Shown: positions 9,987-21,121 of the stretch, one piece after another
Layout: every line of letters begins with the position of its first letter
Numbering within the stretch: position 1 is the stretch's first letter
Assembly: GCA_964489205.1 (NCBI GenBank)
Contig: CAZAXS010000001.1
Coordinates: 1 to 31,123, forward strand
Length of the DNA: 31,123 nt
From: an uncultured Gammaproteobacteria bacterium
GTDB taxonomy: Bacteria; Patescibacteriota; Patescibacteriia; UBA1558; CAZAXS01
Reading direction: 5' to 3'
Position numbers and translations under genes: made by a program
Notes under the pieces: model-generated
Seen by the model: only the letters and a program-made list of their open reading frames with translations
What the model was told of the DNA's origin: nothing
The model's database searches: none

Positions 9987-10052
9987 ACAAATTAAAATAA
10001 AATCACCAATAATTAAATTGATGATCTTATTATGGCTCGGGAAGAGGGGCTC
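9987..10052 (-). repeat. Duplicate of the tRNA-Asn 3' end (20 nt including CCA) plus 46 nt of trailer
   Basis: 66/66 match to 10183-10248 at offset 196. Confidence 0.95.
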
Positions 10053-10168
10053 TTCTTCACCCGTCGCTTCGCGTCCCGCAAAGCAGGACAAGCTCCGCTC
10101 CTCCTTCAGAACCTGGGTCATAAATAACATGAAACTATTCATATTATTTATGTACCCTTCGAGCCCCT
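10045..10168. other. Highly structured ~125-nt segment between the tRNA-Asn 3' end and its duplicate
   Basis: Closing 8-bp inverted repeat AGGGGCTC (10045-10052)/GAGCCCCT (10161-10168), a ~19-bp AT-rich hairpin at 10115-10157, and a small GC hairpin GTCCCGC-AAA-GCAGGAC at about 10073-10089. Confidence 0.7.
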
Positions 10169-10228
10169 TTAATTGTTTTTTAACAAATTAAAATAAAATC
10201 ACCAATAATTAAATTGATGATCTTATTA

Positions 10229-10303
10229 TGGCTCGGGAAGAGGGGCTCGAACCCACGACCCGCTGATTAACAGTCAGCTGCTCTACCACTGAGCTATTCC
10301 CGA
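10229..10303 (-). tRNA. trnN: tRNA-Asn (GTT)
   Basis: TCGGGAA-TAGCTCAGTGGTAGAGC-A-GCTGA-CTGTTAA-TCAGC-GGGTC-GTGGG-TTCGAGC-CCCTC-TTCCCGA-G-CCA. Full cloverleaf with encoded CCA. Confidence 0.97.
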
Positions 10304-10326
10304 ACGCCATATTTAATTTTTAAAAA

Positions 10327-10542
10327 CTATTTACCGCAACCAGATTTATAATATTTTTCTCTTTTCCTACATTTTATTCTGTCACCCACCTTCTCGATAA
10401 ATATAATTTTCCATGGACGATAACCTTTTATTGAAAAAACCCTACCAAAATTACGGTCTCTTAGTCTCAGATTCACATCTTTTGACATTCCAACATATAT
10501 TCTACCGTCTAAAGAACTTATTATTGCATAAACATTGTACAT
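10327..10542 (-). CDS. Minimal GIY-YIG endonuclease (SLX1-like/YhbQ-like small family), probably degenerate
   Basis: YNVYAI...IYVG...RL..RNxG...RPWK....E...REKYYKSGCGK*. The usual HN is RN. The TAG at 10327-10329 is followed in frame by FLK, matching GKKFLK of the intact copy at 14866. Read-through would give 82 aa ending at 10294, inside the tRNA. Confidence 0.8.
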   Translation of the reverse strand: MYNVYAIISSLDGRIYVGMSKDVNLRLRDRNFGRVFSIKGYRPWKIIFIEKVGDRIKCRKREKYYKSGCGK

Positions 10543-10578
10543 ATTTTACTACAAATATTATGCCCCGCTGTTTTTTTA

Positions 10579-10642
10579 AGCTACTCCCTGCCTTCCGTCA
10601 GGCAGGTACCACTGAGCTATTCCCGAACGCCCTATTTAATTT
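10579..10642 (-). repeat. Duplicate of the tRNA-Asn 5' part with a 20-bp palindrome inserted at the D-loop/D-stem junction
   Basis: 10607-10642 matches 10284-10319 (35/36) and 10579-10586 matches 10276-10283 (7/8). The insert CCTGCCTGACGGAAGGCAGG (minus strand, 10587-10606) lies between them. Confidence 0.9.
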
Positions 10643-10677
10643 ATTAGGTATTTAAATATAGTTAGCAATAATCACTG

Positions 10678-10708
10678 CACACCAGAGGCGAGTCCGCCTT
10701 TGACAGAT
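10678..10708. repeat. Degenerate copy of a GC-rich double-hairpin (REP-like) motif in the tRNA-Asn leader
   Basis: cacacc-AGA-ggcgag-t-ccgcc-TTT-gacaga. Shares CCAGAGGCG and spacing with 15120-15149 and 21056-21086. Confidence 0.6.
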
Positions 10709-10757
10709 TAACTAATTTATATATAACAAGAACGTAAACCTAATAAATAGCACGAAT

Positions 10758-10786
10758 AATATACAGTCTATAACAAAATGTGTCAA
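10758..10786 (-). promoter_or_regulatory. Putative sigma70 promoter for the tRNA-Asn/GIY-YIG transcript
   Basis: Minus strand reads TTGACA-17 nt-TATATT. Confidence 0.65.
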
Positions 10787-10889
10787 TAATTATTTTTGTC
10801 AATAAAATTAAGCTTTTTACAATAATTTCTTGAATTTTTTTAGATATAATACTAAAATAGTCTTCATTCAAGATCATTTTGAGGTAAAC

Positions 10890-11111
10890 ATGGAAAGCGA
10901 TGAAAGAGAAATGAAAATCGTACCTTATGAAGAATACATGCGCCTACAAACGGAAATAATATTAAGTCAAGATAATATTAAAAAAGCCACAGAATTTTTT
11001 GGTCATCCTCCTACCAGAAATGAGGCAGCGTGTTATTACATTTGTAGTGGACAGGCAATACAATTTTCAAAAAAATATAAAATATTAGAAAAGCCCTCGG
11101 AAAAAAACTGA
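10890..11111 (+). CDS. Hypothetical protein (73 aa)
   Basis: GAGG RBS 5 nt before ATG 10890 (ORF track starts at TTG 10830). A hairpin AGCCCTCGG/CTGAGGGCT spans the stop. No family recognised. Confidence 0.55.
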   Translation: MESDEREMKIVPYEEYMRLQTEIILSQDNIKKATEFFGHPPTRNEAACYYICSGQAIQFSKKYKILEKPSEKN

Positions 11112-11128
11112 GGGCTCCTTATTACATG

Positions 11129-11137
11129 TGCTATAAT
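11129..11137 (+). promoter_or_regulatory. Extended -10 element upstream of the 37-aa ORF
   Basis: TGcTATAAT consensus, ending 26 nt before ATG 11164. Confidence 0.5.
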
Positions 11138-11163
11138 ATATTCGCTAATAAATTTAATATTTT

Positions 11164-11277
11164 ATGACTATATTTTTCGCTATCGTTTCTTTAGCTGCCG
11201 TTTTCTTTCTTATGGCAACTGTTGATACCCTGAAAAAAATAAATACCAACATAGAAAAAATTGTTGGTAAGAAATAA
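11164..11277 (+). CDS. Small single-pass membrane protein (37 aa), not in the ORF track
   Basis: MTIFFAIVSLAAVFFLMATVDTLKKINTNIEKIVGKK*: a hydrophobic helix plus a basic tail, flanked by an extended -10 and a terminator. Confidence 0.5.
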   Translation: MTIFFAIVSLAAVFFLMATVDTLKKINTNIEKIVGKK

Positions 11278-11311
11278 AAAAAGACCCTAGCATGACGCAG
11301 GGTCTTTTTTT
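11276..11311. terminator. Bidirectional intrinsic terminator between the small ORF and rpoD
   Basis: AAAAAAGACCCT...AGGGTCTTTTTTT with A/T runs on both sides, between convergent genes. Confidence 0.75.
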
Positions 11312-11314
11312 ATT

Positions 11315-12685
11315 TTAGTAATCTTCTAGTTTTCTTCGACTTGGATGATTTTGAATTTTTTCTAATGCCTTAGCTTCAATTTGTCTAATACGTTCACGAG
11401 TAACACCGAACTCCTGACCCACCTCTTCTAAGGTATGAGTAACGCCGTCGGTCAAACCATAACGCATTTCTAATATTTTTTGTTCACGCGGGGAAAGTTC
11501 AGCAATGATTTCAGTAACATGATCTCTTAATAACTGCATAGCCGCTAATTTATCAGCGGAGATTGTTTTTTCATCTTCAATAAAATCACCAAGGGTACTA
11601 TCTTCATCATCTTCGCCCACAGATGTTTCCAGAGATACAGTTTCTTGAGATATTTTCATAATATGCAAAACCTTATCCAATTCTTCACCCATTTCGGCTG
11701 CAATTTCCTCGGCCAAAGGTTCACGTCCTAAGTCTTGTATTAAGCGACGTTCAACTTGTTGGAAACGATTAATGGTTTCTACCATATGCACAGGAATACG
11801 AATAGTACGAGACTGGTCGGCTAATGACCGAGTGATCGCCTGTCGAATCCACCAAGTAGCATATGTAGAAAATTTAAAACCTTTACGGTAATCAAATTTA
11901 TCAACCGCTCTAAACAAACCGATATTCCCTTCTTGTATTAAATCTAACAAAGTCAAAGAACGGCCGGTAAACTTTTTAGCGATACTAACCACCAAACGTA
12001 AATTCGCTTCAACTAATTTTTTTCTAGCTTCCATGTCACCACGTTCTTTACGTTTAGCCAATTGAATTTCCTCATCGTTACTTAACAATGCAACTTTACC
12101 GATTTCTCGCAAATACATTTGAATTGAATCTTGTGATATATCGGTTAAGTCAATATTACCAAAAGTCGGTTCTTTTTTTCTATTAACACCCGTCTTACTA
12201 ACAACTTTACTTTTTACTTCAGCAACAACCGGATTCAACAAAGAAACCTCACCTAAAATCCCAATTTCCCTTTGAACAATTTGTAAACCCAAAATGTCCA
12301 AAGTATCTAGAAAACTTTCAAATAAATCCATACACTCTTCAACGTCACGAAAAACATACATGACTTCTTCCTCTGTCACAAAACCACGAGATTGAGCTTT
12401 AGCAACTAAAGCATCAACTTGTTCTTGAGTTGGAATAAAAATAGGTTCATCTAGTTGCGGTTGAACCACTGGCTTGGGTGTTGGATTTTTTTTAACATTT
12501 TTAACAACTGGTTTTACAACTTTTTTTATCTTTACAACTTTTTTTTCTTTTTTAGCAACAATCTTTTTTTTGGTTACTATTTTATTTTTAGCTTTTACTT
12601 TGGCTAAAGATTTTTTATTAGTTTTCGTATCTTTAGTGGTTTTTGCTTTTGATTTTACAGCAGTTTTTTTCTTTAGAGCTGACAT
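11315..12685 (-). CDS. rpoD: Primary RNA polymerase sigma factor (sigma70) with a long Lys-rich N-terminal extension
   Basis: Region 1.2 [11 protein letters not shown], region 2 [12 protein letters not shown] / [10 protein letters not shown] / [13 protein letters not shown], region 3 RTIRIPVHM, region 4 [20 protein letters not shown]. Confidence 0.97.
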
Positions 12686-12836
12686 AGTTAATAAAATATA
12701 TTAATTATATATTTTACGAGCAAGGGACTTTATTAGTCACCCCCTCGTCTTCTTTTGTTACAAAAATATTTAGAACTTATCCAAATATATGTTCAAAGAA
12801 GATTAATTTTATTTAAAAAAATAAAACTAGATCTGT

Positions 12837-14612
12837 TTATGACATTTCTGCCATCAACCGATCAAGCTCAATACTTTCTGCCACTAAAGAAGTAATCTGT
12901 TCCTGGTTACCAGAAGATTCAGCGGTGCGCAACAAATTTATAATTTCTAATTTACGTTGCTTAATACCTCTGCTGGTGAGTAATTTTGCCAGGCGCTCAC
13001 CTTCTTGTTGGAGTTCACCGGGAGTCAAAGACTGGTAGTCCGTTTCGTACAAAAGCGAACAGCTTTCTTTTAACTCATTCAACTCTTTGGAAAGTTGTTG
13101 ATTATTAACCGATGTAGTATTTAAACCGTTATGAGCATACAACATTTTAACATTTTCGTAAAGATCCTTATATTCACCTTTTGGAAGCCAGCGCTCATCT
13201 AAAAACTTTATACGCTTAAAATCAAATTTTGTGTCATTTAACAGAATAGCCAATAAACTTTCCACCGCTTTTATCGTTTGTGATAACTCAGGATTGTACT
13301 TTCTTTCGTCTTCTTTGTTTAAATTAACAGAACTCGTTATCGTTTTTTGCATATTCCTGTTAACTAACTCACTTAAAGCAGTTTCTGTCGTTCCTAAATG
13401 AACCGCATAAAAACGTAAATAATGATCGCGTTCAACCGGATCGTTTAAATAACTTAATAAATCAACTAATTTTTGGGCTGCTAATTTCTTTTGTTCTAAT
13501 TTATTTAAATCAAATTTAGATAAAATTAATTCAGCCGAATAATCCATGTACGACTTTGCATCTTTGATCGCTTCACGCCACGCGCTTGGATTATTTCTTG
13601 CTAATTCATCCGGATCCTTACCTTCAGGAATAACCACCACCTTAACATTCATTCCCGCTTGCCAGAGCAACTCAATACCTCGCAAATTAGCTTTTTGACC
13701 AGCTGAATCAGCGTCAAAAGCAACCATTACATTGTTGGTATATCTTTTTATTAATTGGACTTGTTGAGGAGTTAAAGCCGTTCCACAAACAGCTGCCACA
13801 TTTTTTGTCCCCGCTTGCCAAACACCCACAGCATCCATATACCCTTCAACTAAAATCACATAATCCAATCTTTTTATCTCGCTTCGACATGCATTTAAGC
13901 GATACAAAACTTCGCTTTTATTATACAAAGGGGTTTGCGGACTGTTTAAATATTTTGGAGAATTTTCTTGCGCTTTTAAAATTCGTCCACCAAAACCGAC
14001 CACACTTCCATGAATATCGGAAATAGGAAACATGATACGACCACGAAAACGATCTATTCCCCGACCATCACTAGCGACCGTTGCTAAACCAATTTGCTGA
14101 AGCTCACGTAAACTATAACCTTTCATTAATAATTTTTTTATTAATCCATCCCAACCTTCCGGCGCCCAACCGATTTTAAATTCTTTAATAGTCTCTTCAG
14201 TTAAACCTCTTCCTTTTAAATAATCCCTGGCTTCACGTCCGCCTGTCAAAGACAACTGTTCCTGCCAAAAATCAGACGCCATATTCATAGCTTCTGACAT
14301 TTTACCAATAATACCCGAAGCTTCTTTATTATAAGACGTTAATTTAATTCCGGCTCGATCGGCTAGCTTAGTTAATGACTCAACAAAAGTTAAATTTTCA
14401 ATTTTTTCTAAAAATTTAATAACATCTCCACCTTCGCCACAACCAAAACAACGCCACATTTGACGATCAGCAGAGACCATAAACGACGGAGTCTTTTCTT
14501 GATGAAAAGGACAGCGCCCTTTAAAATTACTCCCCGAAGGTGTGAGGGTTACATACTCTTTAATAAAAGAGACTATGTCAATTTTTTGTTTAATTAAATC
14601 AACATCATTCAT
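12837..14612 (-). CDS. dnaG: DNA primase
   Basis: CHC2 zinc finger CPFHQEKTPSF...CFGC, DRFRGRIMFPI, PKYLNSP, Toprim VEGYMD and FDADSAG. Upstream of rpoD as in the conserved dnaG-rpoD order. Confidence 0.97.
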   Translation of the reverse strand: MNDVDLIKQKIDIVSFIKEYVTLTPSGSNFKGRCPFHQEKTPSFMVSADRQMWRCFGCGEGGDVIKFLEKIENLTFVESLTKLADRAGIKLTSYNKEASGIIGKMSEAMNMASDFWQEQLSLTGGREARDYLKGRGLTEETIKEFKIGWAPEGWDGLIKKLLMKGYSLRELQQIGLATVASDGRGIDRFRGRIMFPISDIHGSVVGFGGRILKAQENSPKYLNSPQTPLYNKSEVLYRLNACRSEIKRLDYVILVEGYMDAVGVWQAGTKNVAAVCGTALTPQQVQLIKRYTNNVMVAFDADSAGQKANLRGIELLWQAGMNVKVVVIPEGKDPDELARNNPSAWREAIKDAKSYMDYSAELILSKFDLNKLEQKKLAAQKLVDLLSYLNDPVERDHYLRFYAVHLGTTETALSELVNRNMQKTITSSVNLNKEDERKYNPELSQTIKAVESLLAILLNDTKFDFKRIKFLDERWLPKGEYKDLYENVKMLYAHNGLNTTSVNNQQLSKELNELKESCSLLYETDYQSLTPGELQQEGERLAKLLTSRGIKQRKLEIINLLRTAESSGNQEQITSLVAESIELDRLMAEMS

Positions 14613-14685
14613 AGCGCCAGCTTATCACTATCTTACAAATTGAGCAAAAATAAGCAATATTAAAAGATAATACATGTTAAGGATA

Positions 14686-14713
14686 TTGATATTTTTAAAC
14701 AATCTGCTAAACT
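14686..14713 (+). promoter_or_regulatory. Putative sigma70 promoter for tRNA-Ser
   Basis: TTGATA-16 nt-TAAACT with an extended -10 TG. Confidence 0.55.
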
Positions 14714-14739
14714 AGCCAGCGGATTAGTGTTTAGCTGGT

Positions 14740-14829
14740 GGAGAGGTCGCATAGTGGCCTAGTGCGCTCGCTTGGAAAGCGAGTAAGGTGTAAAAGCCTT
14801 CGGGAGTTCGAATCTCCCCTCTTCCGCCA
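14740..14829 (+). tRNA. trnS: tRNA-Ser (GGA)
   Basis: GGAGAGG-TC-GCATAGTGGCCTAGTGC-G-CTCGC-TTGGAAA-GCGAG-long variable arm (AAGG..CCTT)-GGGAG-TTCGAAT-CTCCC-CTCTTCC-G-CCA. Confidence 0.96.
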
Positions 14830-14865
14830 GCTAAACATTAATAAAAAAACAGGGCATATATTTTT

Positions 14866-15117
14866 ATGCCTTATTTTGTCTATATTTTAAAAAGTTTAAA
14901 AAATAACAAACTCTATACTGGGTCAACATCCAAAAATCCCAAAGAGCGCTTACAAGAACATAATTGCGGACACAATAAATGGACAAAAGCTAATGGTCCA
15001 TTTGTGCTAATTTATTATGAAAGATTTGCATGTTCAACCTGCGCTAGAATAAGAGAAAATTTTCTTAAAAGCGGAATAGGAAAAAAGTTCTTAAAATTAC
15101 TATTAAGTTTACAATAG
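14866..15117 (+). CDS. Minimal GIY-YIG endonuclease (SLX1-like/YhbQ-like small family), intact, 83 aa
   Basis: YFVYILKS...LYTGST...ERLQEHNCG...TK..GPF.LIYYE.F...A..RE.FLKSG.G; the Tyr, Arg, His-Asn and Glu positions of the family are retained. Confidence 0.9.
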   Translation: MPYFVYILKSLKNNKLYTGSTSKNPKERLQEHNCGHNKWTKANGPFVLIYYERFACSTCARIRENFLKSGIGKKFLKLLLSLQ

Positions 15118-15119
15118 TT

Positions 15120-15149
15120 TCCGCCAGAGGCGGGTCAACCCCTGGTTGA
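15120..15149. repeat. GC-rich double-hairpin (REP-like) motif inserted in the T-loop of the duplicated tRNA-Ser 3' end
   Basis: TCCGCC-AGA-GGCGGG-T-CAACC-CCT-GGTTGA, preceded by AGTT and followed by CGAATCTCCC, which are the two halves of the tRNA's AGTT|CGAATCTCCC. Confidence 0.8.
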
Positions 15150-15247
15150 CGAATCTCCCCTCTTCCGCCAGCTAAACATTAATAAAAAAACAGGGCTTAT
15201 ATTTCTATGCCTTATTTTGTCTATATTTTAAAAAGTTTAAAAAATAA
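15150..15247 (+). repeat. Duplicate of the tRNA-Ser 3' end, trailer and first ~13 codons of the GIY-YIG gene
   Basis: 96/98 match to 14809-14906 at offset 341. Confidence 0.95.
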
Positions 15248-15274
15248 ACCACCAAGTCTGACTTGGTGGTTTTT
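15246..15274. terminator. Bidirectional intrinsic terminator
   Basis: AAACCACCAAGT-CTG-ACTTGGTGGTTT followed by a T run, between convergent units. Confidence 0.75.
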
Positions 15275-20651: not shown

Positions 20652-20929
20652 TTATGACTCCTTTTTGATGAACAATATTAAACTCTAATTAACATAATAA
20701 TTGCCTTAAGTCAACTAATATGCCTTTACTTTATTATTAAACTTGCCCAAACTTTATACTTATTAAGTTCTAAGATTATTTATAGATAAACAAAAAAAAC
20801 ATAGTTATCTATGCTCTGTGTTTAATTAATCTGTAATTTATAAATTCTAGTCAAGCGCTCTGGATCATCTAACATGTTGCACGTCCAGTCCCACACCATT
20901 GAATGACCATTTACTTAAAAACTTTAAAG

Positions 20930-21005
20930 TGGTGCGTCCAGTAGGAATCGAACCTACGACCATTTGCTTAAAAGGCAACTGCTCTACCGACTGAGCTATG
21001 GACGC
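20930..21005 (-). tRNA. trnK: tRNA-Lys (TTT)
   Basis: GCGTCCA-TAGCTCAGTCGGTAGAGC-A-GTTGC-CTTTTAA-GCAAA-TGGTC-GTAGG-TTCGATT-CCTAC-TGGACGC-A-CCA. Confidence 0.97.
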
Positions 21006-21055
21006 GAATAGATTAAATTATTGTAAATGTTTGAATGACTAATGATAACCAACTG

Positions 21056-21086
21056 TCCGCCAGAGGCGTGTCAACTTCTAGTTAAA
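21056..21086. repeat. Degenerate copy of the double-hairpin motif in the tRNA-Lys leader
   Basis: TCCGCC-AGA-GGCGTG-T-CAACT-TCT-AGTTAA, colinear with 15120-15149. Confidence 0.7.
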
Positions 21087-21121
21087 GCTATGGAACCGCG
21101 TAAATAGAAACAACGGATAAA

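Follow-up and report, generated by a model that had tools for sequence, protein, structure and literature searches.

Small GIY-YIG nuclease genes, GC-rich hairpins and partial tRNA copies at tRNA genes of a Patescibacteria genome: a candidate selfish cassette

Two tRNA loci with a nuclease gene, a hairpin and a partial tRNA copy

We analysed a window of 31,123 nt (contig CAZAXS010000001.1, here C1) from a 532-kb genome of 74 contigs (35% GC, ~82% complete), in which two tRNA genes are each accompanied by a small gene for a GIY-YIG nuclease, a GC-rich hairpin and a partial second copy of the tRNA. Three tRNA genes were located in the window by ARAGORN, tRNA-Asn (10229–10303, minus strand), tRNA-Ser (14740–14825, plus strand) and tRNA-Lys (20930–21005, minus strand), and an Rfam search of the window placed tRNAs alone above threshold. 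A match to BTnc005, a Bacteroides small RNA, was driven by a terminator and an A-rich stretch and was dropped (26 bits against a threshold of 175). The tRNA-Asn locus is made up as follows.

9987–10052, minus: second copy of the tRNA-Asn 3' end (20 nt) with a 46-nt trailer, closing a 196-bp unit
10053–10182, minus: structured 130-nt insert of the 3' module, with an anti-T-loop segment (10158–10168), an AT-rich hairpin and GC-rich hairpins
10229–10303, minus: intact tRNA-Asn(gtt) (ARAGORN; Rfam tRNA, 68.5 bits)
10327–10542, minus: GIY-YIG nuclease gene, 71 aa (Pfam PF01541, E 1e-11), between the intact tRNA and the partial copy
10587–10606, no strand: 20-nt GC-rich palindrome (CCTGCC-N8-GGCAGG family) that interrupts the partial copy at the D-loop's 3' edge
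10607–10642, minus: partial tRNA-Asn copy, 35/36 identical to 10284–10319, comprising tRNA nt 1–20 and 16 nt of upstream flank
10758–10786, minus: promoter-like site upstream of the partial copy, the nuclease gene and tRNA-Asn (11/12 consensus positions, by consensus match alone)

The partial copy on the 5' side forms a direct repeat with the intact gene (10284–10319 and 10607–10642) with a period of 323. The palindrome is placed after the GGTA of the D-loop, and the tRNA homology then picks up again for 8 nt (10579–10586). In the nuclease gene a TAG codon is found where homologues run on for ~10 residues, and Arg and Ile stand in place of a near-invariant His and Thr, features by which this gene is probably decaying. 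The closest relative of this gene, found in genome G006, is again placed at a tRNA-Asn. On the 3' side there is a further direct repeat, which an earlier, sequence-only reading of this DNA had not spelled out: 9987–10052 and 10183–10248 are identical at 66/66 positions with a period of 196. As single-stranded DNA (ssDNA), the 3' module with its adjoining repeat is predicted to fold with −30.9 kcal/mol (z −6.1), and the closing helix of 8 bp pairs the anti-T-loop segment with the duplicated T-stem. No other allele of the Asn trailer turned up when metagenome contigs were scanned for exact patterns, near-identical records being possibly outside that scan.

At the tRNA-Ser locus the same components are found on the other side of the tRNA.

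14740–14825, plus: intact tRNA-Ser(gga) (ARAGORN; Rfam)
14866–15117, plus: GIY-YIG nuclease gene, 83 aa (Pfam PF01541, E 6e-16), every conserved catalytic residue kept
15120–15149, plus: 30-nt double hairpin, 2 nt past the nuclease stop codon, splitting the T-loop of the partial tRNA-Ser copy between TT and CGAAT
15150–15247, plus: partial second unit, 96/98 identical to 14809–14906, with 17 nt from the 3' end of tRNA-Ser, a spacer of 40 nt and 41 nt from the start of the nuclease open reading frame (ORF)
15246–15272, no strand: bidirectional terminator-like hairpin of the family CCAAGTC-N-GACTTGG, ending the partial second unit

The Ser direct repeat (14809–14906 and 15150–15247) has a period of 341 and includes 81 nt of non-tRNA flank, and the double hairpin folds as ssDNA with −11.3 kcal/mol (z −3.1). 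All direct repeats of both loci consist of a tRNA end (17–20 nt) together with non-tRNA flank (16, 81 and 46 nt). The sequence-only reading had described a 323-bp Asn unit and a 341-bp Ser unit, each with a GIY-YIG gene and a near-perfect partial tRNA duplicate in which a palindrome interrupts a loop (D-loop in Asn, T-loop in Ser) while the neighbouring tRNA is intact, and this description held throughout. It had also taken the loci for two separate instances of one design, in agreement with their different nuclease clades, hairpin families and tRNA sides; the two nucleases are so diverged that BLASTP gave no alignment between them. A conserved motif, AAACAG-GGGCATA followed by an AT-rich run, is located ahead of three of the four small nuclease ORFs of this genome (14851–14872; before 10542; C10 ~1186–1215), and in the Ser copy it is able to pair with the start-codon region and may control translation.

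Decayed remains are found at the third tRNA of the window.

21046–21100, minus: remains of a 5' copy of tRNA-Lys, decayed like the double hairpin in its D-loop, read by eye (intact gene 20930–21005)

A decayed 3' partial copy of tRNA-Lys is also present (20880–20930), and modules are therefore found at all three tRNAs of the window.

Repeats of this kind could in principle be an assembly artefact, or else remnants of integrase-type elements with tRNA attachment sites. The genome is a metagenome bin, and one of its contigs, C53, ends right after tRNA-Arg(tcg) in a 45-nt perfect palindrome of Illumina TruSeq adapter sequence (C53:3409–3453), which is an assembly artefact; duplicated tRNA ends are also typical of integrated elements. 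However, two independent assemblies, from an ENA and a JGI sample (L013, L014), contain the Ser locus together with its repeat, and the layout recurs in dozens of genomes, complete ones among them. The units measure just 196–341 bp and contain no integrase or intron, as the sequence-only reading had stated, the sole tyrosine recombinase of the genome being on contig C10, and the repeats span non-tRNA flank and part of an ORF. An origin along either of these lines is hardly credible.

Association of nuclease genes, hairpins and partial copies within and between genomes

Four small GIY-YIG genes are present in the whole genome, which has 23 tRNAs, and each of them lies no more than ~160 bp from a tRNA (Asn, Ser(gga), His and Val(gac)). 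One further GIY-YIG match is inside a 445-aa open frame, which we take, unchecked, to be uvrC. Partial tRNA copies are more widespread, as a census by BLAST and 14-mers found them adjoining at least 12/23 tRNAs, most without a nuclease gene. As a control for chance, a 14-mer of the tRNA end was searched with ≤2 mismatches in random 450-nt pieces; it recurred in 3/1840 control pieces, as compared to 8/23 tRNAs for 5' copies and 7/23 for 3' copies. The breaks in the partial copies fall in the D-loop, the anticodon loop or the T-loop and carry hairpins. Downstream of tRNA-Arg(tct) on C10 a near-whole pseudo-tRNA bears hairpins in its anticodon loop, in its T-loop and, at two places, in its D-loop, and the 3' modules of Asn, Glu, Arg(gcg) and Ser(tga) start with a 10–12-nt inverted copy of their own T-loop and T-stem. 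Over half of the tRNA loci of this genome are remodelled by what is apparently a selfish DNA system.

Three hairpin families are confined in this genome to within ~450 bp of tRNAs, namely the 20-nt palindrome, a longer CCCGCCCG...CGGGCGGG hairpin and the 30-nt double hairpin. The CCTGCC-N8-GGCAGG family has six clear copies in the genome, each ≤300 bp from a tRNA. A fourth family, CCAAGTC-N-GACTTGG, is found elsewhere in the genome too and doubles as terminator. A whole-genome scan by GC-rich windows gave too much noise, since coding sequence is GC-rich on many contigs, and exact-sequence look-ups returned no record for the contig C38 nuclease and one neighbour gene on C56.

Two of the loci outside the window show further rearrangement. 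The 3' module of tRNA-Arg(gcg) (C13:6250–6640) is a tandem duplicate of a ~199-bp unit of tRNA 3' end, trailer and GC-rich segment, with a short T-loop-like filler at the tandem junction. At the His/Arg locus (C10 below ~704), two independent assemblies (L069, L070) lose all agreement with C10, and thereafter with one another, past the 3' fragment of His, which suggests structural variation or a chimeric join.

Further comparisons were made in a set of 41 genomes, this one and 40 relatives of the same order. The nuclease was found in 35/41 genomes with 1–17 matches each, and 6/40 relatives were without it. The sequence-only reading had proposed that such genes are enriched at tRNAs, and the comparison set agrees with the four genes here: 58 GIY-YIG ORFs were found in 55 loci, and 42 of them lie within 150 bp of a tRNA, as compared to ~3% expected. 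Orientation is the same as that of the tRNA in 46/47 ORFs, 32 being on the 5' side (mostly 0–30 nt away) and 15 on the 3' side, and the tRNAs concerned span 15 amino-acid types. Named homologues of the nuclease belong to Patescibacteria (candidate phyla radiation, CPR), i.e. to Paceibacterota and Nomurabacteria. In other families of the order the partial copies, the hairpin families and the insertion points recur, the latter between GTT and GG in the D-loop and between GGTT and C in the T-loop, and in L008 a tandem array before tRNA-Ser holds two full units of 5' fragment, double hairpin and nuclease. The end of one gene of the family abuts, in place of a tRNA, an RNase P RNA gene (L068:1198–1806, contig C8 of G031; Rfam RF00010, 167 bits).

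The numbers of hairpins and nuclease genes go together. The hairpin TCCGCC-N3-GGCGG occurs in 0–31 copies per genome, as compared to 0–2 for a reversed control pattern; all six nuclease-less relatives have 0–1 copies, and the nuclease is present in 14/14 genomes with ≥10 copies. Across genomes hairpin number was correlated with GIY-YIG number (Spearman 0.62). Partial tRNA copies showed the same pattern, as none was found at the 44 tRNAs of three nuclease-less genomes (0/14, 0/14 and 0/16) and 14/55 tRNAs had one in three nuclease-rich genomes (5/13, 5/28 and 4/14); a wrong-side control gave 0. Within a single genus the contrast was 0/16 tRNAs in G011 vs. 4/14 in G031. The genome-level pattern is clean despite the kinship of the genomes. 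On the nuclease tree, hairpin family changed less often than in shuffles (type A 9 vs. 14.2 changes, type B 2 vs. 3.9; 0/500 shuffles as low for each), the double hairpin going with the Ser/Pro clade and the 20-nt palindrome with the Asn clade. The pairing of GTC-N-GAC hairpins with the His clade is suggestive only (53/500 shuffles as low).

Short palindromes in bacterial genomes call to mind repetitive extragenic palindromic (REP) sequences and REP-associated tyrosine transposases (RAYT), the textbook pair of hairpin and enzyme, and the hairpins here could be REP-like palindromes moved by an HUH transposase (Y1, RAYT or IS200-like), with the GIY-YIG genes as bystanders. Indeed, two Y1-like ORFs with HUH motifs are encoded in this genome (C24:2893–3435, L101:594–1136; C74:1270–1515, L102:371–616). 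However, neither of them adjoins hairpins or tRNAs, and among the 40 relatives no relation of Y1 presence to the number of hairpins was seen (Spearman 0.06, Fisher p = 1), a Y1 match being absent in 6/14 hairpin-rich genomes and present in three hairpin-free ones. We therefore regard HUH-driven spread as very improbable.

The double hairpin is also found in protein genes. In relatives it lies in-frame inside recG (DEAD helicase domain), asparagine synthase (asnB), an Exo_endo_phos (xth-like) nuclease and a LytR-family gene, where it adds ~10 residues such as SA-x-GG and resembles Rickettsia palindromic elements. The genes are located as follows.

L091:652–2826, in relative G031
L096:1–1653, in relative G025
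L086:1330–2136, in relative G023
L082:43–1689, in relative G013

Comparison of close genomes showed that the modules turn over. The 196-bp Asn 3' unit is missing from an independent contig that is otherwise 100% identical (L015), an 'empty' allele that could also be an assembler collapse, as it is a single contig with a coverage of ~3x. In the congeners G035 and G006 whole modules differ around identical tRNAs, and with these pairs the filled and empty alleles anticipated by the sequence-only reading were found. Between strains otherwise 98–99% identical, substitutions concentrate in the pseudo-tRNA and hairpin parts, and the tRNAs and the nuclease ORF are identical; as these parts carry most of the between-strain substitutions, the idea that the modules are selected host RNA elements was rejected. 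Nuclease-less modules vary between close genomes, and none of the close variants compared lacked the nuclease genes themselves.

The nuclease protein and the proposed cassette

Proteins of the family are 71–95 aa long and the whole chain is one domain (AlphaFold2 pLDDT 95.5 for the Ser protein), modelled with the element order expected for a GIY-YIG fold (beta-beta-alpha-alpha-beta-alpha). The GIY-YIG superfamily is marked by a set of conserved residues, Tyr, Tyr-x-Gly, Arg, His and Glu. Eight residues are invariant in an alignment of 20 sequences (Y6, G19, R28, H32, T40, E52, E64 and K68), and by Pfam match, invariant residues and fold the proteins belong to the GIY-YIG superfamily, the Asn copy being truncated and without His and Thr. 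The family profile matched UPF0213 (1e-12) and Slx1 (1e-6) better than I-TevI (0.0085) in the PDB, and Foldseek gave the same order, with TM-scores of 0.57–0.72 for UPF0213 and Slx1 (Slx1 0.64–0.72) and ~0.5 for I-TevI. As modelled, the proteins are bare catalytic domains of a UPF0213/Slx1-like branch, with nothing left over for a long duplex site.

This matters for the possibility that the protein is a classical homing endonuclease that cuts the duplex tRNA gene in the D-arm or T-arm, as SegB of phage T4 does, so that break repair copies the nuclease gene in and the hairpins are passengers or disable the target. The SegB precedent, with its T-arm motif, tRNA cluster and tandem amplification with a truncated nuclease copy, is much like the Ser locus; the nuclease clades are partly tRNA-type specific, and the breaks lie in conserved D- and T-loop sequences. 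Nevertheless, Seg and I-TevI enzymes depend on a DNA-binding domain apart from the catalytic one, and no sequence outside the catalytic domain was found in these single-domain proteins, which in sequence and fold are far nearer to UPF0213/Slx1 than to I-TevI. Passenger hairpins would not explain the co-variation with nuclease clades and counts, and the intact tRNA in the same genome retains the supposed target. For this last reason the sequence-only suggestion that the palindrome masks the target site also fails as it was put, since the intact tRNA in the same cell keeps an unmasked site. Homing of the classical type is thus quite unlikely.

Alternatively, the nuclease might be a domesticated host function, encoded by a gene long in residence and transcribed together with tRNAs, that restricts incoming hairpin-bearing ssDNA or polices hairpin invasion of tRNA genes, with the partial copies as by-products of damage that it causes or mends. 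The conserved catalytic residues and a ratio of nonsynonymous to synonymous substitution (dN/dS) of 0.145 between congeners point to purifying selection. The almost uniform co-orientation with the tRNA, 5'-side genes mostly ending 0–30 nt before it, and the presence of one clade at one tRNA type in different bacterial families (e.g. Asn, Met, Pro and Ser(gga)) would fit a resident function as well, and SsnA modulates natural transformation in Neisseria (PMC11893778). Against such a role, copy number varies from 0 to 17, the gene is absent from the six nuclease-less relatives and the Asn copy is probably decaying. Moreover, the modules differ between strains and congeners, their pseudo-tRNA parts evolve faster than their surroundings, and the in-frame hairpins in conserved genes of relatives are parasite-like. 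We regard a host function as unlikely.

Taken together, our results lead us to favour, with moderate confidence, a selfish nuclease-hairpin cassette that is lodged in tRNA genes through partial duplication and works like the Ssn/SRM pairs; for any single mechanistic step our confidence is much lower. The cassette would consist of a bare GIY-YIG nuclease and a clade-specific family of GC-rich hairpins, 20 nt with Asn and 30 nt with Ser. The evidence leans towards the palindrome, rather than the tRNA duplex, as partner of the nuclease, given the bare catalytic domain, hairpin families that follow nuclease clades and a hairpin number that follows GIY-YIG number. By analogy to Ssn enzymes, the nuclease may act on its own hairpin in ssDNA, with no need to read a long stretch of duplex. 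The landing sites of hairpins, and of cassettes with hairpins at their ends, would be the positions encoding the D-loop, anticodon loop and T-loop, which are conserved in tRNA genes. The finding of hairpins at these positions, and in some cases within the loop of a second hairpin (L003), suggests apical loops of folded ssDNA as the site of insertion. Interruption of a tRNA gene would kill the cell, and events would persist only where an intact tRNA is kept next to the broken piece; such a survival filter would yield the layout of intact tRNA, nuclease gene and partial hairpin-bearing copy with flank. Cleavage at the tRNA gene followed by repair could supply the duplication, which plausibly comes from break-induced recombination between short homologies as in SegB amplification; the Ser locus, with its tandem tRNA and truncated-nuclease unit, looks like a product of this type. 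Later, nuclease genes would decay, as in Asn, nuclease-less modules would persist at most tRNAs, and modules would be lost through recombination between direct repeats.

Going one step further, the cassettes might represent an undescribed class of mobile element, in which a bare GIY-YIG single-strand nuclease, together with the hairpin that matches it, inserts into folded ssDNA where loops are encoded, with no duplication of the target. In such a class tRNA genes would be preferred and saved by partial duplication, hairpins alone would spread non-autonomously, even in-frame, and clades and hairpins would co-evolve. We put this forward as a tentative proposal that may well not hold.

Several observations weigh against the cassette reading. 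GIY-YIG enzymes do not ligate DNA, and insertion would therefore need host functions. Flank is duplicated along with the tRNA piece, which fits a local duplication better than an element arriving from elsewhere. In a shuffling test, a given clade of nucleases kept in part to a single tRNA type across bacterial families (27 label changes vs. 32.5 in shuffles), and the genes are under purifying selection; both findings fit a long-resident, possibly useful gene too. The nearest solved relatives are UPF0213 proteins, and the published SRM consensus of Ssn pairs gave a single genome match, a chance-level result (0.2 in shuffles) that lies away from the nuclease genes, whose flanks do carry GC-rich hairpins of other kinds. 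Finally, the genome-level p-values of 0.002 and 0.0002 overstate the support because the genomes are kin, and the possible collapse in L015 weakens the case for an empty allele.

If the cassette reading is true, a tiny nuclease-hairpin parasite shapes a large share of the tRNA loci in ultra-small CPR bacteria. This would extend Ssn-type nucleases to a lifestyle inside essential RNA genes and give a cellular counterpart of phage SegB-driven tRNA amplification. It would also explain the pseudo-tRNA fragments in these genomes, and perhaps contigs that end at or near tRNAs, and it would offer a natural library of nuclease and hairpin-site pairs for ssDNA tools. The contrasts between genomes, in which no nuclease goes with no hairpins and no partial copies, make the causal link directly testable.

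Comparison with known systems

The sequence-only reading knew of no published description of this arrangement. That stood for the arrangement as such, for which we found none in the literature, and did not stand for its parts, as Ssn enzymes (PMC11893778) and SegB (PMC2330249, PMC13096335) are partial precedents.

Among less direct parallels, tRNA-targeting integrative elements differ in that no tyrosine or serine integrase is found in or near the units and the repeats here include 16–81 nt of non-tRNA sequence. REP sequences and bacterial interspersed mosaic elements with their RAYT share with our hairpins the multiplication of short GC-rich palindromes in a genome, although the partner here is not an HUH transposase. 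Rickettsia palindromic elements, for which we know of no enzyme, are likewise found in-frame inside conserved protein genes. Mobile endonuclease ORFs and GC-rich double-hairpin elements of fungal mitochondria (Allomyces atp6, Glomus) are a further comparison (PMC3787672). In such systems an endonuclease ORF inserts at the terminus of an essential gene, and the displaced gene part is found in duplicate afterwards, either brought in or left behind by the ORF; small GC-rich double hairpins spread in an AT-rich genome, near such ORFs. These elements are organellar and their targets encode proteins, no homology of the hairpins is implied, and a connection of the hairpins with the nuclease has yet to be established for them as well.

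SegB, a free-standing homing endonuclease of phages T4 and T6, recognises an 11-bp T-arm motif within a 27-bp duplex site and drives tandem amplification of a tRNA and truncated-segB unit in a tRNA cluster by recombination at microhomology (PMC2330249, PMC13096335). Both systems have a GIY-YIG gene among tRNA genes, the SegB target includes a conserved T-arm motif, and its tandem unit resembles the 341-bp Ser unit. However, SegB is a multi-domain protein as compared to the catalytic domain alone here, no association of it with hairpin repeats is known, and it belongs to phages and not to cellular genomes.

The closest parallel in layout is given by the Ssn enzymes (CDD cd10448; SsnA/NTS of Neisseria meningitidis), site-specific nucleases which cut ssDNA beside hairpin repeats that flank their own gene, and whose authors remark on the IS-like hairpin-gene-hairpin layout (Chenal et al. 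2025; PMC11893778). The hairpins here are off the SRM consensus, and tRNA is never mentioned in that paper, for which reasons we liken the cassette to the Ssn pair and do not file it as a member. A further difference is the lodging of the gene here at or inside tRNA genes, where the tRNA is partly duplicated and hairpins occupy loop positions. In both cases, nevertheless, a bare GIY-YIG protein of a single domain (~90–100 aa in Ssn) is encoded by a gene with GC-rich hairpin repeats on its flanks, the repeats are far more numerous than the gene, and nuclease and hairpin variants are paired.

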